The notes under the pieces are model-generated. The model was not told the DNA's origin, made no database searches, and saw only the letters and a list, made by a program, of their open reading frames with translations. Source: an uncultured Actinomycetes bacterium (GTDB taxonomy: Bacteria; Actinomycetota; Thermoleophilia; UBA2241). From it: a stretch of 64,000 nt of DNA. The stretch covers positions 29,694-93,693 of the forward strand of contig CAVTCH010000009.1 in assembly GCA_963733255.1 (NCBI GenBank), in the 5' to 3' direction. The position numbers were made by a program, and so were the translations under genes. Of the stretch, positions 2,648 through 24,300 are shown piece after piece (position 1 is the first letter of the stretch; every line of letters begins with the position of its first letter).

Positions 2648-3114
2648 AGCAACTCGCCCTCATACTGCGCGACCGCCGCGACGAGCTCCACGGCTGCTGG
2701 ATCGCCCTGCTCAAGGGCACTGTCGGCGCGGAGTACCTCGACCTGCTGGCGAGCCCCCTGGGGGTGCGCCTCGTGCGCCGCATCGTCGACGACATGGTGA
2801 CGCTGTCGCAGGCCGAAGCCTACGAGGTGCCGGGCATCATCCGCCGCATCGAAAAGGAGACCGCGGGCGACGCCGCCCGCCGGGGCGCCCTCGGCTTCGA
2901 GCTCATGGACGTGGTCGCGGGGCTGCAGCAGGTGCGCGCGGCCATCTGGAAGGTCCTGATCGACGCGCTCGTGGTCGGCGACCTGCCGTCGTTCGGCGAG
3001 ACCATGGACGAGATGCAGCAACTCGACGGCTTCATGGACCTGCTGGTGCGCGTCGAGGTGAGGGGCTTTCTCGAAGGGCGCGACCGCCCCTCCGCCGCCG
3101 ACGACGACTGGTGA
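2644..3114 (+). CDS. hypothetical protein (156 aa), possibly a sensor-type alpha-helical domain; translationally coupled to larB (ATGA overlap)
   Basis: ORF in frame from ATG 2644 overlapping the larB stop; no recognisable catalytic motif. Confidence 0.45.
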   Translation: MKQLALILRDRRDELHGCWIALLKGTVGAEYLDLLASPLGVRLVRRIVDDMVTLSQAEAYEVPGIIRRIEKETAGDAARRGALGFELMDVVAGLQQVRAAIWKVLIDALVVGDLPSFGETMDEMQQLDGFMDLLVRVEVRGFLEGRDRPSAADDDW

Positions 3115-3710: not shown

Positions 3711-4553
3711 TCAAGGCGGGCCCGGCGCGCCGGCCGGCTCCCTGTCGCGGCGGATCAGAACGAGGGCGACATCGTCGGCCGGCGGGTGGCCGCCGAACGC
3801 GGTGGCGTCGGCGATCAGGCCGTCGAGGAGGGCGCCGCCCGGCAGGTCGCGCAGCTCCTCGAGGGCCTGGTCTAAGCGCGCGTCTTCGTAGTAGCGGCCG
3901 GTGGCGTCGCGCACGTCGGAGAGCCCGTCGGTGTAGAGCAGCAGGGCCTCGCCGGGAGCCAGCTCGACGTAGTCGGTGGGCAGCGCCTGAAGCTCGGCTT
4001 CCTCGGTGACGCCGAGCGCCGGGTTGCCGAACAGCAGCGGCCGCTCAATGCGGTCGCGGCGCAGGACGATGGGGCTCGGGTGTCCCGCGGTGGCGAGGCC
4101 GACCACGCCGCTGCGGGCGTCGACCGAGGCGATGCAGACGGTGACGAAGTCGTGCGGCTCGTGAGGCACGGCGAGGAGGGCGTTGTGGATGTCGCGCAGC
4201 GCTTCGCCGGGTAGCAGGGGCCAGCGCTGCGCGGCGAGGATGGCCCGCACGATGTACTTGGCCATGATCGCGCGGGCCGCCGCCCCGACACCCTTGCCGC
4301 GGACGTCGCCGAGCGTCACCACGACCTGCGCCAGCCCGCCCTGGCCCAGAAAGTCGACGAAGTCGCCGCCGAAGCCGTCGATCTCGCGCAGCTCCGAGCG
4401 TTCGTCGTCGCCGCGCGTGCGGTAGAGGGTCTCGATCTCGAGCCCCGCCACCTCCGGTCGCTCCCCCGGCCCGAGCAGGTCACGAAAGTCCGAGATCAGG
4501 CGCCGCACGGCATCCGGGGTGTGGCGCCGGTCGCCGGTTTCGGGCGCGGTCAT
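3711..4553 (-). CDS. PP2C-family (SpoIIE/RsbU-like) serine phosphatase
   Basis: Conserved PP2C blocks (GDVRGKG, LLYTDG, DDVALVL); start ATG overlaps the gatD stop (ATGA). Confidence 0.8.
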   Translation of the reverse strand: MTAPETGDRRHTPDAVRRLISDFRDLLGPGERPEVAGLEIETLYRTRGDDERSELREIDGFGGDFVDFLGQGGLAQVVVTLGDVRGKGVGAAARAIMAKYIVRAILAAQRWPLLPGEALRDIHNALLAVPHEPHDFVTVCIASVDARSGVVGLATAGHPSPIVLRRDRIERPLLFGNPALGVTEEAELQALPTDYVELAPGEALLLYTDGLSDVRDATGRYYEDARLDQALEELRDLPGGALLDGLIADATAFGGHPPADDVALVLIRRDREPAGAPGPP

Positions 4554-5506: not shown

Positions 5507-6882
5507 TGCCGGACCTCTTTCCAGTCCGCGAGCGCGCCGCGGACCTCCTTGAGCGCCGTATAGGTCGGCAGCAGGTAGACCGCGCGGGCGCCGCGCCGTG
5601 TCGCCAGCTCGAGCGCGGCGCTCACGGAGTCGACCGTCGCAAGGGCTTCGTCGGGCACGCCGGCGTAGCTCAGCCGGAGCGCCATCTCGTGCTTGCGCGT
5701 GCCGCTCGTCACGACCAGGCTCGCCGGCGGCAGCAACTCCTCCATGTCGACGTCCCAGATCCACGAGATGTCGCGGCCGTCGGCGATGTTGTCGTTCAGA
5801 ACGAAGACGAGCGCCTTCTCGCCCGGAACGTCCCCCAGCGCGCGCAGCGTCTGGTTCATGCCGGCCGGGTTCTTGACGAGATTGACCTGCACGGTGGTGT
5901 CGCCGCGGGCCACGAGACTCCAGCGCCCGAAGACCGGCTGATAGGCGGCCAGCGCGCGCAGCGTGCTCGCCGGCTCGACGCCGAGCCGCTGGGTGAGAGC
6001 GACCGCGCCCAGGGCGTTGTAGATGTTGTGCAGGCCGGGCACGCGGAGGCGCAGCTCGCCGGCGACGACGCCGGCGAGCTGCGCCTCCGCGTGCCCGGCG
6101 ACCGTGGCGAGCGCGCGCGCTTCGAGGTCGCGCGGCGGCCGGGCGAAGCTGCACGACGGGCAGCGGTAGTCGCCGAGCTGCGACAGCCAGCGCGACGAGT
6201 ACTCGAGCATCGTCGCGCAGCGCGGGCAGATGGCGACGTCGCTGACCTCGTGGTCGGCGCGTCCGTCGCGCACGTCGACGCCGAAGAAGACGGTCTCGCG
6301 ACCGGATTCCTGGGCGACCCAGGTCACGAGCGGGTCGTCGGCGTTGGCGACCAGCACAGAGGCGGGCAGATCGCGCAAGGCGGCGAGCCAGCCTTCGGCC
6401 AGGCGATTGACCTCGCCGTAGCGGTCGAGCTGGTCGCGGAACAAGTTCGTCAGCACGACGACCCGCGGCGCTCCCAGCAGGTCGATGGCCGCCGGCACGA
6501 TCGCCTCGTCGATCTCGAGCAGGGCGAACGGCGCCGCCGGGCGTCGCGAGAAGGCGGTGGCGATGCCCGAGAGCAGGTTGGCGCCTTCGGCGTTGGTGAC
6601 GAAGTCGCGGCCGGCGGCCGTGAGGGCGCCGGCGGCCATGTTGGCGGTCGTCGTCTTGCCGTTGGTGCCGGTGACCACCGCGAGGCCCTCGGTGAGCCGG
6701 TGACCGTGGCTTTCCAGGTAGCCCGGAAAGAGCGCGTTGGCGACCTTGCCGGGCATGCTGCTCGCCTGGCCGGCGCCGCTCAGGCGCACGGCGGCGGCGA
6801 CGGTTCGGGCGGTGAGGCGGGGAAGGAGCTCCATGTCGGGCTCATGATACTCGATGCGACAGCGCAGCCCCTTCATGGTCAC
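5503..6882 (-). CDS. murT: lipid II isoglutaminyl synthase ligase subunit MurT (Mur ligase family)
   Basis: Mur ligase P-loop GTNGKTTT, Cys4 zinc ribbon (CPRC...CPSC), and a DUF1727-like C-terminus. Confidence 0.8.
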   Translation of the reverse strand: MTMKGLRCRIEYHEPDMELLPRLTARTVAAAVRLSGAGQASSMPGKVANALFPGYLESHGHRLTEGLAVVTGTNGKTTTANMAAGALTAAGRDFVTNAEGANLLSGIATAFSRRPAAPFALLEIDEAIVPAAIDLLGAPRVVVLTNLFRDQLDRYGEVNRLAEGWLAALRDLPASVLVANADDPLVTWVAQESGRETVFFGVDVRDGRADHEVSDVAICPRCATMLEYSSRWLSQLGDYRCPSCSFARPPRDLEARALATVAGHAEAQLAGVVAGELRLRVPGLHNIYNALGAVALTQRLGVEPASTLRALAAYQPVFGRWSLVARGDTTVQVNLVKNPAGMNQTLRALGDVPGEKALVFVLNDNIADGRDISWIWDVDMEELLPPASLVVTSGTRKHEMALRLSYAGVPDEALATVDSVSAALELATRRGARAVYLLPTYTALKEVRGALADWKEVRQ

Positions 6883-6954: not shown

Positions 6955-7137
6955 TCAGGACCGGATCGGGGAGCTGGTACTTTGCGTATTGGTCTGGAGC
7001 GATCTTGAAGGTGCCCGTGGCCACGTGATCGAAAGCTCGGTTTGAGCGGCGAGGCGGGAAGAGCGCTGTCTTTCAACATCCTTCAACGAATGGTACAGGT
7101 TGAAGCCGTCGACGATGAAGCAGACGCGCTTGGCCAT
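6955..7137 (-). pseudogene. short ORF whose first ~20 aa resemble a NYN/LabA-like domain N-terminus (MAKRVCFIVDGFNLYHSL), probable gene remnant
   Basis: Similarity confined to the N-terminal strand and DG motif; the rest is unlike NYN; local GC drops. Confidence 0.25.
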
Positions 7138-9060: not shown

Positions 9061-10151
9061 GCGTGCCCTACCTCGAGATCGAAGCAAGCGGATCTCCCCG
9101 CGAGATCGGCCGCCAGATCGGCGAAGCCTCACGCCACCTGGTCGTCGCCGGCATCGCCTACTACGAGGAGTACCACGAGGAGATGGGCGGCCTGCCGTTC
9201 GCCGTGGCCGAACAGGAGTGTCTGGCCTTCCTGCCACCCGCCCGCCGGGCGCTGCCCAGGATCGTCGAGGAGCTCGAGGGCCTGGCCGAAGGCGCCGGCG
9301 TGCGGCTCAGCCAGGTGCTCGTGCCCAACCTCGGCGAGGAGCTCACCTGCAACGCCGACCCGGCCGCGAGCCCCGATGGCGCGCCGCCCGTGTCCCACGC
9401 CGATCACTGCACCTCGGTGGCCGTGCGCGCGGGCGGGTGCTGCCTGCTCGGCCACAACGAGGACTGGTGGGCCGGCGACGTCGACAAGAACGTCCTGCTG
9501 CGCCTGACGACCGACGACGGCACGCAGATCCTGGCCATGACGTCGGCCTGCCTGCTGCCGCCGACCGGCATCAACTCGCACGGTGTCGCCACGGCGGGCA
9601 ACACCCTGTACGCCGACGACCAGCGCGTCGGGGTGCCCAACAACTTCATCCGGCGTCACCTGCTCGAGTCGCGCTCGCTCGACGACGCCCGCCGGCGCGC
9701 CCTGATCGAGACCCGCGCCCGCGGTTCGAACCACCTGTTCGCCGACGCGGCGGGCGGCCTGCTCGACATCGAGGCTGCCGCGACCCACGAGGCGCTGATC
9801 GTGGGCGCCGACCGGCTGGTCCACACCAACCACTTCGTCGACCCGGCGATGACCGGCAGCGACCTCTCGACCTCCGAGGGCACCCGCCGCCGGCTGGCCC
9901 GGGCGACCGCGCTGCTCGACCAGGGTCTGGCCCGCGGCGACGACCCGCGCGACCTGCTGCAGGCCATCCTGAGCGACCACGACGGCTACGACGGGGCGAT
10001 GTCGATCTGCGGCCACCCTGACCTCTCGGTGCCGGTGGGCGAACGCGACATGACCACGGCGAGCATGATCTGGGACCTTCAGGAGCTCTCCGTCGAGGTC
10101 TGCGCCGGGCCGCCGTGCGAGAACGAGCGACGCCTGTTCAGACTGCGCTAG
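9057..10151 (+). CDS. peptidase C45 family Ntn-hydrolase (acyl-CoA:6-APA acyltransferase-like)
   Basis: CTSVAV nucleophile region and HNEDW motif; ATG overlaps the upstream stop (ATGA); AAGGAGA SD. Confidence 0.7.
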   Translation: MSVPYLEIEASGSPREIGRQIGEASRHLVVAGIAYYEEYHEEMGGLPFAVAEQECLAFLPPARRALPRIVEELEGLAEGAGVRLSQVLVPNLGEELTCNADPAASPDGAPPVSHADHCTSVAVRAGGCCLLGHNEDWWAGDVDKNVLLRLTTDDGTQILAMTSACLLPPTGINSHGVATAGNTLYADDQRVGVPNNFIRRHLLESRSLDDARRRALIETRARGSNHLFADAAGGLLDIEAAATHEALIVGADRLVHTNHFVDPAMTGSDLSTSEGTRRRLARATALLDQGLARGDDPRDLLQAILSDHDGYDGAMSICGHPDLSVPVGERDMTTASMIWDLQELSVEVCAGPPCENERRLFRLR

Positions 10152-10188
10152 CTCGGCGCTCGACTGTGTCGCCGCCGCTCAAGCCGGC

Positions 10189-10268
10189 GCGACGTCGTTG
10201 CGCACCTGGTCACGGTGCCGCTCAGACCGTCGCGATGTTGTTGCGCACCCGGTCACGCCGCCGACCGT
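10189..10268. repeat. two tandem ~40-bp direct repeats (core GTTGCGCACCYGGTCACG) in the dehydrogenase upstream region
   Basis: Seen directly: gcgacgtcgttgcgcacctggtcacggtgccgctcagaccgtc / gcgatgttgttgcgcacccggtcacgccgccgaccgtc. Confidence 0.5.
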
Positions 10269-10369
10269 CGCGACCGGCTACGGTCGGACCGGGCTGATGC
10301 GATACAATCTGTAGCTCGGTCGCCGCGGCGGCCCGCAACCCGACCGACACCTCGAACGGGAGCGCAGAA

Positions 10370-13529: not shown

Positions 13530-14849
13530 CTACTCCCGGCCCAGCGCCGCCAGGTAGGTCTCGAGCCGCGGGCCGCCCTTGGGCAGGCCCAGCTTGCGGC
13601 GCACGTTGGCTCTGTGAAAGGCGACCGACGACGCCGAGATGTGCAACGTCTCGGCGATCTCGGCGCTGGTCTTGCCGAGGCGCACGAAGTTGGCCACCTC
13701 GGTCTCGCGACGGGTGAGCGGCCGGCCGCCGTTGGTGCCGGCGAGGTGGTGCCCGAACGGCCCGACGATCTCGCGCAGGTTCATGCGCACGGCCTCTATC
13801 TCGAGCCGCTCGGGTCTGTGGTGCAGCGCCCGGCTCAGGCGATCGAGCGTCGGGTCGATCAGGTGCTCAACGTTCTGTACGATGCGCTCCTCGAGCTCGC
13901 GGCGATCATGCTCACGCTGTTCGAGCAGGACCCGCAGCGCGGTGTTGCGCTCGTCTGAGATCGTCGCCTGGCGGCGCAGCGCGCGTTCCGAGCGGGAGAG
14001 CTCGTCCTGCATGGCGCGCTGCTCGGTGATGTCGGTGCCCAGCAGAAAGTAGCTGCGCTCGTCGCCCAGGTGAGCCGGGATGATCGTGAGGAGCAGCGTC
14101 TTGGGCCGGCCCCGCACCGTGCAGGTCACGTCGAGCTCGACGATCCTGTCGTCGGCGCCGGGCTCGCCGGACACCGCGGCGCACACGTCGGGCGGAAAGT
14201 CGTCGCGGATGGTCGCGGCGAGCATCTCGTCGCGGCTGCGCTCAAAGAAGGCGAGGGCGCGCTCGTCGGCGTCGAGGTAGGCTCCCGAGGCATCGACCTG
14301 CAGAGCCGGGCTGGGCAGGCGGAACAGGACCCGGTGCAGCTCGTTGGCTTCGCGCAAGGCGAGCTGCACCTCTCGCTCGTCTGTGACGTCGCGCATGGCG
14401 CCGATCATGTTCACGGGGTCGCCGGCCTCGTCGGCCAGGATGACTCCCTGATCGTGGATGGTCCTGAACGAACCGTCGCCGTGGCGCAGCCGGTAGTCGC
14501 ATCTGAACGGCGCGAGGCCGCCCACGCTCTGCGAGACCGCGTCACGGACCCGCTCGCTGTCGTCGGGGTGCAGTCGCTCGAACCAGCCTTCGACGTTGCG
14601 CGGGAAAGCGCCCGGTCGCAGCCCGAGCATGCGGTCGAGCTGCTCGCCGAAGTAGATCGCGCCGGTCCGGATGTTCCAGTCGTACACGACGTCGAAGGTG
14701 ACGGCGAGAAAGGCGCGCAACCGGGGGTCGCCGTAGGCGAGGGGCGGCGGTACGACGGTGCCGTCGATGCCGGCCGAGCGAAACAGCGCCCGCGGCCCCT
14801 TGAGTTTGAGGCTCCGTTTGAGCGTGGGCGGGATGCGTCTGCTAGGCAT
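13530..14849 (-). CDS. PAS-domain LuxR-family transcriptional regulator
   Basis: Two PAS-like segments and a C-terminal HTH (LTRRETEVANFVRLGKTSAEIAETLHISASSVAFHRANVRRKLG). Confidence 0.75.
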   Translation of the reverse strand: MPSRRIPPTLKRSLKLKGPRALFRSAGIDGTVVPPPLAYGDPRLRAFLAVTFDVVYDWNIRTGAIYFGEQLDRMLGLRPGAFPRNVEGWFERLHPDDSERVRDAVSQSVGGLAPFRCDYRLRHGDGSFRTIHDQGVILADEAGDPVNMIGAMRDVTDEREVQLALREANELHRVLFRLPSPALQVDASGAYLDADERALAFFERSRDEMLAATIRDDFPPDVCAAVSGEPGADDRIVELDVTCTVRGRPKTLLLTIIPAHLGDERSYFLLGTDITEQRAMQDELSRSERALRRQATISDERNTALRVLLEQREHDRRELEERIVQNVEHLIDPTLDRLSRALHHRPERLEIEAVRMNLREIVGPFGHHLAGTNGGRPLTRRETEVANFVRLGKTSAEIAETLHISASSVAFHRANVRRKLGLPKGGPRLETYLAALGRE

Positions 14850-15042
14850 TGCCTATCATTAGCCCCCCAAAAGATTGGCCTTGCCGCCGTCTATATTGTG
14901 GGTACTGTCGCAGTACGTCAACGATGGCGCGCCACTATGGCGCGTCGGCGGGCCGGCCGCCGCGAAAGGGGGTTGCCGCTGGCACAGGCGGTGTCGATCG
15001 TCCGATCGACGCATCCACCCTTGCTACACGGGGAGGCACGGT

Positions 15043-15390
15043 ATGGAGTCTCATCTCGTTTCCGCCGACGCGATCGCGACCGTTCCGCTCGACGTCGGAC
15101 CCGACAGCAAGCTCAACCTGGTCGACGTCATCGACCGCACACAGGGCGCCCCGTTCTGCGCCGGCATCTGCGAGGTCTTCCCGGGCTCGCCGGTCGACTT
15201 CGACTACGACGACGACGCGGCGGTCTGCTACATGCTCGAAGGGGAGGTCACGTTGGCCGAGGATGGCGAGACCCGTGCCTTCAAGCCCGGGGACATCGTC
15301 TACATCCCCCGCAAGAAGGGCCTGCTCGTCTACTGGAGCACCGATTCGTACGGCAAGTTCTTCTATGTGACCTATCCGCACTGGCGGTAG
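15043..15390 (+). CDS. small cupin-fold protein (EutQ/cupin_3-like)
   Basis: 115 aa with beta-barrel motifs (PGDIVYIP); GGAGG SD before ATG 15043. Confidence 0.6.
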   Translation: MESHLVSADAIATVPLDVGPDSKLNLVDVIDRTQGAPFCAGICEVFPGSPVDFDYDDDAAVCYMLEGEVTLAEDGETRAFKPGDIVYIPRKKGLLVYWSTDSYGKFFYVTYPHWR

Positions 15391-15440
15391 GCAGAGAGGG
15401 GGGCTCCTTGCCATCTGAACCAGAACACCACGGGCACCAC

Positions 15441-17099
15441 ATGTTCCACGACGAAGGCGACGCCCAGCACCGGCGCGACAGCGAGCAGTTGGCCAAGTTC
15501 GGCTACAGCCAGGAGCTGCGCCGCTCGCTCGGCTTCTTTTCGACGTTCGCCATCGCCTTCAGCTTCATCTCGGCGACCAACGGCTTCTATGCGCTCTTCT
15601 ACTACGGCCTCGACGTCGGCGGGCCGGCCGGCCTCATCTGGCAATGGCCGATCATAGTCTTCGGCCAGTTCATGGTCGCCCTCGTGTTCGCCGAGGCGGC
15701 CTCGCACTACCCGCTGGCCGGCGGCGTCTACCAGTGGGCCAAGCGCTTCATGGGCGGCACCTACGGCTGGTGGACGGCCTGGATGTTCGCCGTGGCGCTG
15801 GTCGTGACGGTGGCCGCGGTCGCCTTCGGCGTGACGCCGATCGTCTGCTCGCTCATGGGCTGGCAGACGACGCACGGTACCCTGCTGTGGATCGCCGTCT
15901 GCTTCACCGCGGGGCCGATGCTGCTCAACATCTACAGCGTCAGGGTGACGGCCTTCTTCAACAACATCGGAACGGTGACCGAGATGATCGGCCTCGTGGT
16001 GATCGGCACCGCCCTCTACATCGCGGTGATCACCGGCCACGGTCAGCACCAGGGACTGAGTGTGCTGTTCAACACGACGCCGGGCGCTGCGAAGGGCGCC
16101 ATCTTCGGGTACGGCAGTGTCTTCCTTGCCGCGATGCTCACCGGCGCCTGGGTGATGTACGGCTTCGACGCTGCGGGCGGCCTGGCCGAAGAGACGGTCA
16201 ACCCCACGCGTGAGGTGCCCCGCGCCATGCTGTTCGCCGTGGGCATAACGGCGGCCATCTCGGCCTTCTGGCTGGTGGCCATGGTGCTGGCGATACCGAA
16301 CGTCCCAAAGACGCAGGCACAGAGCACCGGCGCCATCGCCTACATCTTCCACGCGCACTTCCCGAACTGGGTGACCAACGCCTTCCTCATCTCGGTGTGC
16401 GTCGCCATCTTCGTGTGCTGCCTGGCCATCCAGGCGGCGACGACACGGCTGCTGTACGCCTACGGCCGCGACAAGATGATCCCTGGCCACAAGTTCTTCG
16501 GCTACGTGCATCCCAGGACCAAGACCCCGCTGACCTCGGCGATCTTCGTGGCCGTAGCGGCCATCGTCGTGCTGCTCTACGTCACCGTCGGCGGCGCCGA
16601 CCCGTTCGTCCAGATCGCCCGCGTCACCGCCTGGGCCACGGCCGGCACCTACATCGCCTACCAGATGGTGGTCTTCGGCGGCCTCGTCAAGCGCTCCAAG
16701 GGCTGGCCCACGGAGAGGGCCTACTTCAACCTGGGCAGGTGGGGCTGGCCGGTCAACATCATCGCCTTCGTCTACGGCGTCTTCATGATCGTGAACCTGG
16801 CCTGGCCGCGGCAATCCACGACCTGGCTCGACACCTACATCGTGATGCTTTCGCTCGGCGTGGTGGTCGTCGTCGGTGCGATCGTGTATGCGATCCAGCG
16901 CGCGCGGGGCGTCGATCTGAGCGCGACGATCCACGAGATCGACTTCTCGCCGGTCGACGCTCAGGCGGCCCTCGCCATGGCCGCCGGCGAAGCCGGCAAG
17001 ACGATCCCCGGCGACGGGCTCTCGGGCGAGACCGGCATGTCCGAGATGTCGGGGCCGCAGCGTCCCGAAGGACCTGAATCAGGAGGTTTTACAGACTAG
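15441..17099 (+). CDS. APC-superfamily amino acid/amine permease (12 TM)
   Basis: Characteristic APC N-terminal helices (FSFISATNGFY..., GGVYQWAKR); alternative TTG start at 15408 after GAGAGGGGGG. Confidence 0.8.
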   Translation: MFHDEGDAQHRRDSEQLAKFGYSQELRRSLGFFSTFAIAFSFISATNGFYALFYYGLDVGGPAGLIWQWPIIVFGQFMVALVFAEAASHYPLAGGVYQWAKRFMGGTYGWWTAWMFAVALVVTVAAVAFGVTPIVCSLMGWQTTHGTLLWIAVCFTAGPMLLNIYSVRVTAFFNNIGTVTEMIGLVVIGTALYIAVITGHGQHQGLSVLFNTTPGAAKGAIFGYGSVFLAAMLTGAWVMYGFDAAGGLAEETVNPTREVPRAMLFAVGITAAISAFWLVAMVLAIPNVPKTQAQSTGAIAYIFHAHFPNWVTNAFLISVCVAIFVCCLAIQAATTRLLYAYGRDKMIPGHKFFGYVHPRTKTPLTSAIFVAVAAIVVLLYVTVGGADPFVQIARVTAWATAGTYIAYQMVVFGGLVKRSKGWPTERAYFNLGRWGWPVNIIAFVYGVFMIVNLAWPRQSTTWLDTYIVMLSLGVVVVVGAIVYAIQRARGVDLSATIHEIDFSPVDAQAALAMAAGEAGKTIPGDGLSGETGMSEMSGPQRPEGPESGGFTD

Positions 17100-17195
17100 G
17101 CGCGCCACGAAGTCACGCTCGCCTGAGCGGCGACGACGAAGTCGCTCACCGGGGGCACTAGGCGCGTCACGATCGGAACAGAAGCGTCACAGGCG
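17094..17195. repeat. one and a half copies of a ~58-bp palindromic repeat beginning at the permease stop codon (gacTAGGCGCGCC...)
   Basis: Sequence identity with the tandem units at 17587-17762. Confidence 0.5.
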
Positions 17196-17220
17196 GGGCG
17201 GCCGCAAGGCCGCCCCGCCT
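17191..17220 (+). terminator. GC-rich stem-loop (13-bp stem, GCAA loop) without U-tract; terminator-like
   Basis: aggcggggcggcc gcaa ggccgccccgcct. Confidence 0.3.
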
Positions 17221-17297
17221 GCGCGAGTGCCGACCCTCGTGAGCGCTCCGCCGTTCCGCCGAGACGCTCCGCCGGGTCGCCGTGCCCGTCCGAACCC

Positions 17298-17328
17298 TTG
17301 ACGACGGGGGCCTGCGGTCTGGTCTAAT
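17298..17328 (+). promoter_or_regulatory. sigma70-like promoter candidate for rubredoxin (TTGACG, 19 nt, TCTAAT)
   Basis: Motif spacing read directly from sequence. Confidence 0.3.
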
Positions 17329-17422
17329 GGGACGTGACACCCAGCGATCGGGGTCGCTTCGCACGACCAGACGGCCGCGACCACCGGCGCCTCTCACGAT
17401 GCCCGCCACAAAGGAGTCATCC

Positions 17423-17590
17423 ATGCAGAAGTACGTGTGCACGCTTTGCGACTGGGTCTACGATCCCGAGATCGGCGATCCCGACAACGGCGTTGCGCCG
17501 GGCACGGCGTTCGACGACCTTCCCGACGACTGGGTCTGCCCCGACTGTGGCGCCGGCGTCGACATGTTCGAGCCCCTCGACGAAGACTAG
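17423..17590 (+). CDS. rubredoxin
   Basis: [10 protein letters not shown]...CPDCG two CxxC knuckles; AAAGGAG SD 7 nt before the ATG. Confidence 0.85.
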
Positions 17591-17762
17591 GCGCGCCGCG
17601 TAGTCACGCATGCCTGAGCGGCGATGACGAAGTCATTCGCCGGCACTAGGCGCGCCGCGTAGTCACGCATGCCTGAGCGGCGATGACGAAGTCATTCGCC
17701 GGCACTAGGCGCGCAGCGAAGCCACGCTCGCCCGAGCGGCGACGACGAAGTCGCTCGGCGGC
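17587..17762. repeat. three tandem copies of a ~58-bp palindromic repeat; first copy overlaps the rubredoxin stop codon TAG
   Basis: Units 17587-17644 and 17645-17702 are identical; the third is diverged; each contains a bulged hairpin (GGCGATGAC gaa GTCATTCGCC). Confidence 0.7.
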
Positions 17763-18794
17763 CTAAGGCACCAGAACCAGCTTGCCGAGCGCCGGACCCG
17801 CCATGATCTCGCGGTGCGCGGTGGCCGCCTCGGAGAGGGGCAGCTCGCGGGCGATCACCGGGTGAAGGCGGCCGGCGGAAAGCCCTTCGCCGATGGCGGC
17901 GTGGGCTTCGGCCAGGGCCACCGGCGCGGCGTTGAACAGCAGCATGCCGCGCACGTCGGCGTCGCGGCTCATGAGGTCGCGCGGCGTGATCTCGATCGGG
18001 CCCCGGCTGCCCACGACGACCACCCGGCCGCTGTGCGCGAGCAGACCCAGGTCGTCCGCGAGGCCGGCGTGGGCGGCCATCTCGACGATGACGTCGTAGC
18101 CGCGGCCGCCGGTCAGCGCGAGCAGCTCCGCGGCGTAGCCGGACGCCGTATGGTCGGCGACGTGGGCGGCGCCCTGTGCCGCTACCAGTTCCCGGCCGGC
18201 CGGCGAGCCTGCCGTGCCGTGCACCGTCGCTTCCGCCGCGACGGCGAACTGCACCGCGGCCAGCCCGACGCCGCCGCTCGCGCCGTGCACCAGCACCAGG
18301 TCGCCGGCGCGCGCCTGTCCGCGCTGGAACAGTGCGCGATAGGCCGAGGCATAGGGCACGCCGAGCGCAGCGCCGGCGGCGAACGTGATCATGGCGGGCA
18401 GGGGATGCACCTGGTCGACCGTGCACAGTGCGGTTTCGGCGTAGGTGCCCGTGAGTGAGCCCGAGGTGTAGACCCGGTCGCCGACCGACGGGTTCGGCGC
18501 CGGGCTTGTGGCGGCCGCCCCGGCCGCCACAGCCGAGCCGGGCTCCTCGGGCGCCGCGGCCCGCGGGGCGGGGCCGGTCGCCTCGATCACTCCGGCGCCG
18601 TCGCTACCCGGCGTGTAGGGCAACGGGGGCGTAGCGGCGTACTGGCCCGAACGCATGTAGGCCTCGACGGGGTTCACGCCGACGGCGTGCAGGCGGACGA
18701 GCACCTCGCCCGCGCCGGGCGGGCGCAGGTCGGTCACCTCGTCGAGCTGAAGGACTTCGGGGCCACCGAAACTGTGGACGCGAACGGCGCGCAT
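17763..18794 (-). CDS. zinc-type alcohol dehydrogenase / NADPH:quinone oxidoreductase (MDR family) with low-complexity Ala/Pro insert
   Basis: Nucleotide-binding GASGGVG and MDR core motifs. Confidence 0.8.
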   Translation of the reverse strand: MRAVRVHSFGGPEVLQLDEVTDLRPPGAGEVLVRLHAVGVNPVEAYMRSGQYAATPPLPYTPGSDGAGVIEATGPAPRAAAPEEPGSAVAAGAAATSPAPNPSVGDRVYTSGSLTGTYAETALCTVDQVHPLPAMITFAAGAALGVPYASAYRALFQRGQARAGDLVLVHGASGGVGLAAVQFAVAAEATVHGTAGSPAGRELVAAQGAAHVADHTASGYAAELLALTGGRGYDVIVEMAAHAGLADDLGLLAHSGRVVVVGSRGPIEITPRDLMSRDADVRGMLLFNAAPVALAEAHAAIGEGLSAGRLHPVIARELPLSEAATAHREIMAGPALGKLVLVP

Positions 18795-18894
18795 CGAACC
18801 TCCTCGTCTCTGCCCGTCTGCCCGGGCACGCCCCGGGCGGGTCCTTGAAGCTTCCCCGAACGGGCGAAAACGTAGAGTCCGGCGCGCCCGGAAC

Positions 18895-19566
18895 CTACTC
18901 GACCTTGGTCAGCTTGGCGCCCTGCGTGACGGTCACCGCGCCGCCCGACTTGGGCGTGCCCTGAACGGCGATCGCCAGCGTGCCGTGGTCGACCGTGAAG
19001 ACGACGCTGTAGGTCGTGAACACCAGGGCCAGCGCGTTCTTGGCGGCCGCGACGACCGCCGCCTGCCTGGCGTCGTGACCGACGTAGTCGTAGCTGGATT
19101 CGAGGTGACCCTTCGTGAGGGTGGCGCTGAACGGACCGACGGTGCGCCCGCCGGCGACCTGTGTGACCGTGTACAGCGCGCCGCTCCTGGCGATGGTCAC
19201 CGTGATGGCGGTGGCGCCGGTCGTGCCGGTCGAGGCGATCGTCGTGCCCTGCCAGGTGCCGAGGAACTGCGTGCCGGGCGCCGGCCTGAGAACGAAGAAC
19301 CAGACCCCGGCGACGGCCACGATGGCGACGATGGCGAGCAGCACGAGCCAGGGCAGCTTCGAGCCTTTCGATGTCTTGCCGGCGCGCAGCGGCTGGATGG
19401 TGGGAGCGGTCGTGCCGTAGGCGGTCGGCGCGTCGTAGTAGGCCTTGTCGTGAACCGGCTCCTGGTAGGCGTCCGCAGCCGGCTGTTGGCTGAGGGGAGA
19501 TCCGCAGGCGCCGCAGGTCCAGGCGCCGTCGCGTGCCTCAGTGCCGCAGCTCGGGCAGGTTGCCAC
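18895..19566 (-). CDS. zinc-ribbon, single-TM protein with extracytoplasmic domain (paralog of 21070-21603)
   Basis: CPSCG...CGACG zinc ribbon, TM helix, and GTWQG motif; GTG start after GAGGAGG. Confidence 0.5.
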   Translation of the reverse strand: MATCPSCGTEARDGAWTCGACGSPLSQQPAADAYQEPVHDKAYYDAPTAYGTTAPTIQPLRAGKTSKGSKLPWLVLLAIVAIVAVAGVWFFVLRPAPGTQFLGTWQGTTIASTGTTGATAITVTIARSGALYTVTQVAGGRTVGPFSATLTKGHLESSYDYVGHDARQAAVVAAAKNALALVFTTYSVVFTVDHGTLAIAVQGTPKSGGAVTVTQGAKLTKVE

Positions 19567-24126: not shown

Positions 24127-24300
24127 GGTGACGCTCAGGGCGGGGCGAGGATCTCCAGGTCGGGGCTGTCTCGGTCGGCTTCGCGGCCTACTGCCCAAGC
24201 GCACCACCTCGCAGGCCGACCTCACGACCCTCACCCCGCCCTTCGCTCCGGCCAGCGCAGGCCGACCTTACGACCCTCACCCCGCCCTTCGCTCGGGCCG
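24127..24300. repeat. composite repeat set A: E1 (GGTGACGCTCAGGGCGGGGYGAGGRTCTCCAGGTCGGGGCTGTCTCGG) followed by two tandem E2 units (CGCAGGCCGACCTYACGACCCTCACCCCGCCCTTCGCTC)
   Basis: Copies recur at 26150-26353 and, in reverse complement, at 28733-28790; E2 core is the reverse complement of the E1 core (17-nt potential stem). Confidence 0.6.

Follow-up and report, generated by a model that had tools for sequence, protein, structure and literature searches.

Repeat units at the rubredoxin locus

The 64,000-nucleotide (nt) stretch analysed here in full, and called the window, comes from an uncultured Thermoleophilia bacterium. In it a small rubredoxin gene lies downstream of an amino-acid permease gene and convergent to a gene for a zinc-type alcohol dehydrogenase (ADH) or quinone reductase. 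After both the permease and the rubredoxin genes there are copies of a repeat unit of 59 nt which starts with the last bases of the preceding gene and contains its stop codon. These units belong to a family that is dispersed through related genomes and clustered at the 3′ ends of genes, and that family is the main subject of what follows. Its profile (nhmmer), run over the whole window, together with Tandem Repeats Finder (TRF) and a repeat search, gave the following copies.

17095 to 17155, plus strand: left unit (ACTAG...GGGGGC), full but diverged, with 85% identity to the copies on the right (nhmmer E=8e-18)
17157 to 17180, plus strand: truncated restart of a second unit (ACTAGGCGCGTCACGATCGG...), half-unit-like with an internal deletion, of which the repeat search scores 18 nt at 17154 to 17171
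17586 to 17644, plus strand: right array unit 1, 59 nt (TRF, repeat search, nhmmer)
17645 to 17703, plus strand: right array unit 2, identical to unit 1 (TRF, repeat search, nhmmer)
17704 to 17766, plus strand: right array unit 3, with 83% identity to unit 1 and a CTAA end whose CTA (17763 to 17765) is the complement of the ADH TAG stop
10149 to 10290, minus strand: third site, a degenerate inverted unit (nhmmer E=2.5e-9; TRF 10174 to 10274)

For the right array TRF gives a period of 59 nt with 2.8 copies, 93% matches and a score of 285 (17586 to 17752), and the repeat search places four in-register copies at 17095-17153, 17586-17644, 17645-17703 and 17704-17762 with identities to the reference of 85%, 100%, 100% and 83%. 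The 19-nt core GAGCGGCGAYGACGAAGTC has four exact occurrences, where 0.24 would be expected with up to three mismatches allowed. An initial annotation of this DNA had described three tandem units after the rubredoxin stop, two identical and one diverged, each of 58 nt; the description is right apart from the length, which is 59 nt both in the DNA and in the string typed there. The diverged copy plus partial copy that it placed after the permease stop are the copy at 17095-17153 and the 18-nt restart, and half-units comparable to the restart at 17157-17180 are present in the related loci L004 and L005. As it also held, the array is not a clustered regularly interspaced short palindromic repeat (CRISPR) locus, since the units abut directly at spacings of 59 and 59 with no unique spacers.

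The permease TAG (17097-17099) and the rubredoxin TAG (17588-17590) both lie within the repeat and both follow GAC, so that, as had been proposed, the repeat supplies the Asp-stop end of both genes. At its other end the right array touches the stop of the convergent ADH gene too. The third site has a 43-nt internal sub-duplication and abuts the TAG (10149-10151) of an AAT-family gene on the plus strand; at the same site one intact unit is present in L004 and L005 and none in L104, L105 and L107. Beyond the left, right and 10149-10290 sites the profile finds no further units in the window. A 46-nt tandem unit at 24210-24299 (two copies, 95% identity, CGCAGGCCGACCTCACGACCCTCACCCCGCCCTTCGCTCCGGCCAG) is unrelated to the 59-nt family.

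A family dispersed in Thermoleophilia

A degenerate pattern for a 28-nt core, built to match all copies known at that stage, matches 98 stretches in about nine Thermoleophilia metagenome-assembled genomes (MAGs), these being GTDB species-representative genomes. Apart from two, the matches come from MAGs that bear the label Thermoleophilia or 'uncultured Actinomycetes', most of them Microflora Danica genomes. One of the two, L089 from a Terriglobia MAG, is a chance match inside coding sequence and not a unit. The other, L069, has a genuine unit (3814-3860) on a 46-kb contig of 70.6% G+C that is binned in an Acidobacteriaceae MAG, and the contig is probably mis-binned Thermoleophilia DNA rather than the result of transfer.

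A profile census by nhmmer of the window and of the 8-kb blocks examined counts 193 units in 116 arrays, of which 64 are single, 32 double and 16 triple, with three of four units and one of five; the multi-unit arrays are head-to-tail in every case (52 of 52). The number of distinct units per MAG is at least 20-32, these figures being lower bounds. The initial annotation had likened the repeat to repetitive extragenic palindromic (REP) sequences, to the bacterial interspersed mosaic elements (BIMEs) that they form, or to MITEs (miniature inverted-repeat transposable elements), with an unusual unit structure, and had reasoned that a unit found nowhere else would be a local duplication. With 98 stretches in about nine MAGs, the dispersed alternative is decisively the one upheld.

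Units of one MAG share a mean identity of 0.84 and units of different MAGs one of 0.83, on an identical consensus, so that genome-specific homogenisation is rejected. The same consensus is found across genomes whose ADH proteins are just 66-78% identical and in which ordinary spacers between the same genes cannot be aligned. Because units are about as alike between genomes as within one while such spacers are unalignable, the sequence is maintained in one of two ways, through selection acting on every copy or through ongoing seeding by constrained masters.

Unit consensus and structure

The unit of 58-59 nt can be written (A)CTAG-GCGCGCGAC-GAA-GTCACGC-CTGCC-TGAG-CGGCGACGAC-GAA-GTCG-A-TCGACGG(C), and the family consensus is gAC-TAG-GCGCGCGACGAAGTCACGCCTGCCTGAGCGGCGACGACGAAGTCGATCGACGG(C)(A)CTAG, with conservation above 90% in most columns and a CCTGAGC that is essentially invariant (150 units). 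The bulged hairpin GGCGA-TGAC-GAA-GTCA-T-TCGCC and the half-site duplication ACGAAGTC, both noticed at the outset, are present, yet the unit is not the single palindrome it was then taken for. It is a head-to-tail pair of related imperfect hairpins that share a GAC-GAA-GTC apex and follow a tag, CTAG in front of hairpin 1 and CTGAG in front of hairpin 2. The G after TAG takes part in hairpin 1, pairing with GCCTG, and hairpin 2 has about 10 bp with a one-base bulge. In every unit a TGA also follows the TAG in frame, at a distance of 27 nt.

Pairs were counted explicitly on 150 distinct units, for comparison with slid partners and with 500 shuffles. The two-hairpin model has 87.3% of cells paired, versus 20-39% with slid partners, and 69 double-change cells, versus 23 +/- 3.5 in the shuffles, none of which reaches 69. 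The changes per pair include G-C to A-U (11), A-U to G-C (18) and G-C to A-U (9) plus G-U (16), and there is covariation in both stems. Columns 15/27 keep a C.A mismatch and columns 43/62 a G.A mismatch. The backing that covariation gives to the two-hairpin fold is modest. Rfam searched with 16000-19000 at E<=10 returned only two chance matches to microRNA or long non-coding RNA families, and gave no match on three other family loci.

Placement at gene 3′ ends

Gene-end statistics were taken from the 100 arrays that lie away from block edges, and context classes from 91 arrays. An array starts with TAG in 72 of the 100, and in 60 this TAG closes a long open reading frame (ORF) of high third-position G+C, i.e. 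a co-oriented upstream gene. The codon before the TAG is NAC (GAC, CAC, TAC or AAC) in 70 of 74; TAG stops free of the element have diverse preceding codons. The 5′ boundary is sharp, with C at -1 in 81 of 82 and A at -2 in 79 of 82. In three arrays the TAG is mutated to CAG or CCG and the ORF continues for nine codons to the in-frame TGA (ending, for example, ...GHQARDVVTPA); one such array is L048 3592-3647 (compare L100 6507-6615), and L025 and L098 belong here too.

At the 3′ end CTAG is present in 38 of 100 arrays and a one-base variant of it in 29 more, and for the most part the DNA beyond shows no relation to the unit. A convergent gene uses the terminal CTA as its stop, at an offset of -1 to +1, in 18 arrays. 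In L039, L041, L059 and the window (17763-17790) several zinc-ADH/quinone-reductase genes, paralogs or orthologs of one another with the ending ...(I/L)VLVP, are stopped by the CTA(G/A) at the end of an array. By context, 46 arrays are between convergent genes, 30 are co-directional and sense, eight co-directional and antisense, and seven divergent, so that gene 3′ ends account for 84 of 91, and no predicted gene overlaps any array. The clustering at 3′ ends that the initial annotation thought worth looking for is thus found, both by this count and by the 60 of 100 arrays whose TAG closes the upstream ORF. Copies apart from any gene end make up 25 of 100 arrays.

CTAG is about nine-fold under-represented in the window, with 19 occurrences versus some 175 expected from composition, and six of the 19 are within elements. 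Among the 51 predicted genes of the window TAG is the stop of 21, TGA of 24 and TAA of six, and a TAG share of this size seems high for a genome of 70% G+C when set beside high-G+C actinobacteria. The orientation of arrays with respect to local GC skew (64 to 31, p=0.0009) was considered as a replication signal, and is explained by the negative skew of the coding strands themselves. In L027 (~3030-3040), L032 (~5685-5695) and L087 (~7085-7095, minus strand) a unit-terminal ACTA joins TAAT to give CTATAAT. In L027 and L032 it precedes an ATG by 7 nt and what lies downstream is conserved from one MAG to the other, and there it looks like the -10 box of a leaderless gene, partly built from the repeat; Rfam has no RNA at the CTATAAT sites.

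Turnover of units and the state of empty sites

Units come and go. After rubredoxin there are two units in L004 and one in L005, with flanks that are 98-100% identical, and many orthologous arrays differ in copy number between GTDB species. Half-units occur at array ends, joined between the two GAAGTC half-sites. L104, L105 and L107, where ADH is 73-77% identical, have no unit at either the rubredoxin-ADH or the AAT site, and the genome of L105 (CAVWDG) nevertheless has at least 32 units elsewhere. Five sites allow the gene end without a unit to be compared with that next to one.

Permease site: empty AGC-TAG (L109), filled GAC-TAG
Rubredoxin site: empty ...PLA-TAG, filled ...PLDED-TAG
AAT site (antisense unit): empty CGG-TAG or CGC-TAA, filled CGC-TAG
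sdh-like site: empty AAG-TGA (K-TGA) in L037, filled CAC-TAG (H-TAG) in L044
ADH site (3′ side): empty CTC-TGA (L-TGA), filled CCT-TAG (P-TAG)

The differences between empty and filled sites may also come from stop-codon drift, as the outgroups are distant. In addition, an acyl-CoA dehydrogenase with an element at its end finishes ...NPFKD in nearly all of its homologs, so its Asp is native there, and the outgroups use TGA.

The rubredoxin gene and its neighbors

The genes and other features around the rubredoxin gene are as follows.

15441 to 17099, plus strand: amino-acid permease gene (ORF list; Pfam AA_permease_2/AA_permease on the identical gene in L001)
17190 to 17221, plus strand: perfect G+C hairpin of 14 bp, GCAA-looped and lacking a U tract, outside the repeat (repeat search)
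17298 to 17328, plus strand: weak promoter-like pair, TTGACG (17298-17303), 19 nt, TCTAAT (17323-17328), conserved in L004 and L005
17423 to 17590, plus strand: rubredoxin gene, 55 amino acids (Pfam PF00301; same gene beside ADH in L104, L105, L107 and L109)
17763 to 18794, minus strand: zinc-type alcohol dehydrogenase / quinone reductase gene (ORF list; Pfam ADH_N/ADH_zinc_N; homologs), with its stop from the array end

The last codon, GAC, and the stop of the permease gene lie inside the first repeat unit, and those of rubredoxin inside unit 1 of the right array. In L109 the permease ortholog, which is free of the unit, ends AGC-TAG. In L004 and L005 the ADH has a TGA of its own as stop, some 40 nt past the last full unit. 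The strong GNRA-loop hairpin that the initial annotation saw between the left repeat and rubredoxin is there (17190-17221); it is kept in L004 and L005, with a compensatory change of C-G to T-A in L005, and is present in L109. It is likely a terminator-type 3′ structure of the permease transcript; a terminator scan of 16900-17900 in which a T run was required found none. The sigma70-like promoter placed upstream of rubredoxin fared less well, amounting just to the TTGACG/TCTAAT pair with its 19-nt spacing, and a scan of 16900-17900 for a consensus promoter with spacing of 16-18 nt found none.

The initial annotation had taken rubredoxin for an autonomous inserted unit or mini-cassette, which orthologous loci might lack. 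ADH homologs were used to find four further loci (L104, L105, L107 and L109), and unit-free orthologous loci do exist among them (L104, L105 and L107), but rubredoxin is present in all and is convergent to the same ADH in every relative examined. What varies is a block upstream. In L104, L105 and L107 rubredoxin comes 39-50 nt after a hexapeptide-transferase gene, and a block of a PAS/GerE regulator, a cupin and the permease (~13530-17099 in the window) is absent; the window, L001-L005 and L109 all contain this block. The indel is of about 3.7 kb between species, with the absent side at L104 7263-7302, L105 7256-7306 and L107 7317-7356. As the block is missing in L104, L105 and L107 while rubredoxin stays, the segment that varies is the regulator-cupin-permease block rather than the rubredoxin gene. 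The repeats on either side of rubredoxin are there because GAC-TAG followed by the element closes this gene and the permease alike, an ending found in dozens of unrelated genes too. Rubredoxin is an ordinary, conserved resident gene of the chromosome and a bystander of two neighboring gene ends that bear the element. The rubredoxin-ADH spacer of L105 (7000-7095) has no 59-nt unit and has a direct repeat of its own of about 30 nt (CACGCACACACGCCGCGCGACGGCCGC / CACCCACACCTGCCGCGCGCGACCGTCGC).

Interpretation

The repeats are quite probably a lineage-specific, non-coding, interspersed element of REP kind belonging to uncultured Thermoleophilia. REP-type tagged palindromic repeats are the closest known kind, and the present family would be a two-hairpin, CTAG-bounded, tandem and stop-supplying variant of them. 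Units would be moved in trans by an enzyme that recognises tagged hairpins, for which the leading candidate would be a single-strand HUH/Y1 transposase, as for REPs, and arrays may gain and lose length through slippage or unequal recombination, either from unit to unit or between the two half-sites. Most copies would be transcribed within the 3′ untranslated region (UTR) of the upstream gene, where their stem-loops may act in REP fashion for 3′-end protection or as barriers to read-through. In the 5′ AC-TAG the AC forms the end of the final codon of the co-oriented upstream gene and the TAG its stop, and the terminal CTAG, which is palindromic, can stop a convergent gene.

Several observations weigh against this. 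The tag is CTAG (and CTGAG), versus GTAG or CGTC, and the units are direct and head-to-tail, versus the inverted dimers typical of REPs and BIMEs. No partner transposase was found, as in the ~0.93 Mb of DNA examined neither a regular expression for motifs of REP-associated tyrosine transposases (RAYTs) nor tblastn searches that used TnpA of IS608 and a RAYT of E. coli gave a hit, and no recurrent protein family accompanies the arrays, the clustered neighbors being ordinary paralog families. Eight of the 38 co-directional arrays are antisense to the upstream gene, so that a role as sense RNA cannot be that of every copy. The folds of single units, on either strand, are no better than those of shuffled sequence (z -0.4 to -1.3), a three-unit array reaches only z -2.0, and RNAalifold on the 150-unit alignment gave a structure of only 2 bp and no consensus structure, which is why pairs were counted explicitly. 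The counts of G-U and A-C intermediates, meant to tell the RNA level from that of single-stranded DNA, and the strand, are balanced. Lastly, the evidence is mixed on whether the element targets NAC-TAG ends that were already there or overwrites gene ends, with native D in an enzyme whose outgroups use TGA, K-TGA becoming H-TAG, and S-TAG becoming D-TAG.

Among the alternatives, the one that survives best is that the unit is a selected cis-acting RNA module of the 3′ UTR, i.e. a terminator, stabiliser or protein-binding site, which is maintained by purifying selection instead of continuing mobility and could spread, rarely, by recombination. The persistence of the consensus in genomes whose ADH proteins have diverged to 66-78% identity and whose ordinary intergenic DNA is unalignable speaks for it, as do covariation in both stems, the invariant CCTGAGC, the sense bias after upstream genes and the use of the TGA as a back-up stop in three arrays. 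Presence/absence and copy-number turnover do not fit, nor do the antisense copies and the quarter of arrays (25 of 100) that are not at any gene end; the separate strong hairpin after the permease unit means that the unit is not the sole 3′ structure there, and Rfam has no match for 16000-19000 and the three other loci. This alternative seems unlikely, though it is compatible with the favored REP-like element and does not exclude it.

A further proposal, which we regard as rather doubtful, is that the element is a stop-codon-seeking mobile module that overwrites the gene end with its own AC-TAG, leaving Asp, His, Tyr or Asn as the last residue and a back-up TGA at +27, by a mechanism of insertion that is undescribed for REPs or MITEs. 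The AC-TAG boundary in 95% of arrays is compatible with overwriting, and so are the contrasts of K-TGA with H-TAG, S-TAG with D-TAG, L-TGA with P-TAG, and D-TGA with D-TAG.

A MITE origin of the unit, from a DDE transposon with TA or CTAG as its target (IS630/Tc1- or IS5-like) and with the flanking CTAGs as target-site duplication, is improbable. Insertions would then pile up on stops because CTAG is rare at 70% G+C and survives mainly at NNC-TAG stops, and the scarcity of CTAG in the window (19 versus ~175, with six of the 19 in elements) agrees with this. So do the CTAG or one-base variant 3′ of about two thirds of arrays, followed mostly by sequence unrelated to the unit, the abutting of stop codons in both orientations, and a TAG or TAA at the same position in three of five empty orthologous sites. 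However, there are no terminal inverted repeats, the consensus 5′ end matching the reverse-complemented 3′ end at only ~7 of 15 positions. A palindromic target predicts random orientation, and co-directional arrays are 30 sense versus eight antisense; the A at -2 in 79 of 82 arrays has no symmetric T after the 3′ CTAG; two empty sites have TGA and no TA; and neighbor clustering, regular expression and tblastn found no transposase nearby.

A mobile gene cassette, in which rubredoxin and a promoter were inserted between recombination sites in an integron/attC-like or composite arrangement, has in its favor that a very small gene is flanked left and right by members of one repeat family and that attC sites were historically called '59-base elements', the unit having 59 nt. 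It is very improbable given the adjacency of rubredoxin and ADH in all relatives, including the three unit-free loci, the location of the variable part in the upstream regulator-cupin-permease block, and the presence of the same units after dozens of unrelated genes; moreover the unit consensus has no GTT, hence no GTTRRRY core, the units are direct and tandem with no ORF between them, and there is no integrase among the Pfam-annotated genes within +/-10 kb. A purely local tandem duplication, or variable number of tandem repeats (VNTR), without a dispersed family is suggested by the identity of two of the three right-hand copies, and its probability is next to nil with 98 stretches in about nine genomes and 116 arrays by profile.

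If the family is a REP-like element, then a considerable number of genes in this lineage have their stop, and some of them their last codon as well, written by a repeat that is selfish or semi-domesticated and that can act on both sides of a convergent pair. The family would be a clean case in which to look for the enzyme that moves tagged hairpins where a RAYT is not apparent. The arrays should be usable as VNTR markers for strain typing of uncultured soil Thermoleophilia, and they caution annotators about gene ends and about assembly collapse.

Comparison with known repeat systems

Bacterial MITEs with TA or CTAG targets include those of IS630/Tc1 type and the Correia elements of Neisseria. 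Like them, the present element is small, non-autonomous and dispersed, varies in presence between relatives, and has short TA-containing direct repeats at both ends. The absence of terminal inverted repeats, the biased orientation and the direct tandem arrays set it apart. With regard to a target site, the 5′ CTAG is present in 72 of 100 arrays and the 3′ CTAG in 38 of 100 with 29 variants, and two empty sites lack TA. A search of the literature on CTAG-targeting MITEs at stop codons and on actinobacterial repeats at stop codons found nothing specific.

The resemblance to integron attC sites is in a length of about 59 nt, imperfect hairpins and a position directly after the stop of a small ORF. 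The differences are that there are no R and L boxes, no GTTRRRY core and no integrase, and that units are in tandem without ORFs between them; the flanked genes, in contrast to those of integron cassettes, are conserved chromosomal ones.

Mycobacterial interspersed repetitive units (MIRUs) and their VNTR loci are closer in host, being actinobacterial tandem intergenic units of 40-100 bp with strain-variable copy number that are joined to flanking reading frames. MIRUs are described as units that insert at start codons, with their ORF translationally coupled to the downstream gene (PMC12548453). The present unit, in contrast, has 59 nt, which is not a multiple of 3, and opens with a stop, with a second in-frame stop nine codons further on; it is placed at stop codons, and 46 of 91 arrays are between convergent genes.

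Tagged palindromic repeats have been divided into GTAG and CGTC super-families by Di Nocera et al. 2013 (PMC3733652), in whose survey the word 'Actinobacteria' occurs 0 times. REPs are mostly between convergent and unidirectional ORFs, adjoining 3′ ends, and the GTAG termini of REP-type repeats 'often provide the ... stop codon (TAG)'; for CGTC families head-to-tail dimers are described as negligible (PMC3733652). REPs are mobilised by RAYT/TnpA-REP Y1 transposases (PMC3333891, PMC2817692). Reading the CCGTC on the reverse strand of the unit as a CGTC tag was considered and set aside, as it misfits the family description of stems that start with AT and a CCA tail. The likeness to REPs, which are imperfect palindromes of 20-40 bp such as each half-unit here also forms, is in short, G+C-rich imperfect hairpins with a conserved xTAG tag at the foot of each, in tens of copies or more per genome (here at least 20-32 units per MAG), and in an extragenic location in convergent or unidirectional contexts at 3′ ends, where the tag often gives the TAG stop and tandem reiteration is possible. 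Besides the tag sequence and the direct order of units, the present family differs in that two unlike hairpins, always paired head-to-tail, make up its unit, that the AC before TAG is conserved, that CTAG at both ends allows one array to stop both genes of a convergent pair, and that the host is an actinomycetote. REP-type repeats have so far been charted mostly in Proteobacteria, and this family would add to them an actinobacterial, CTAG-tagged, direct-tandem member.

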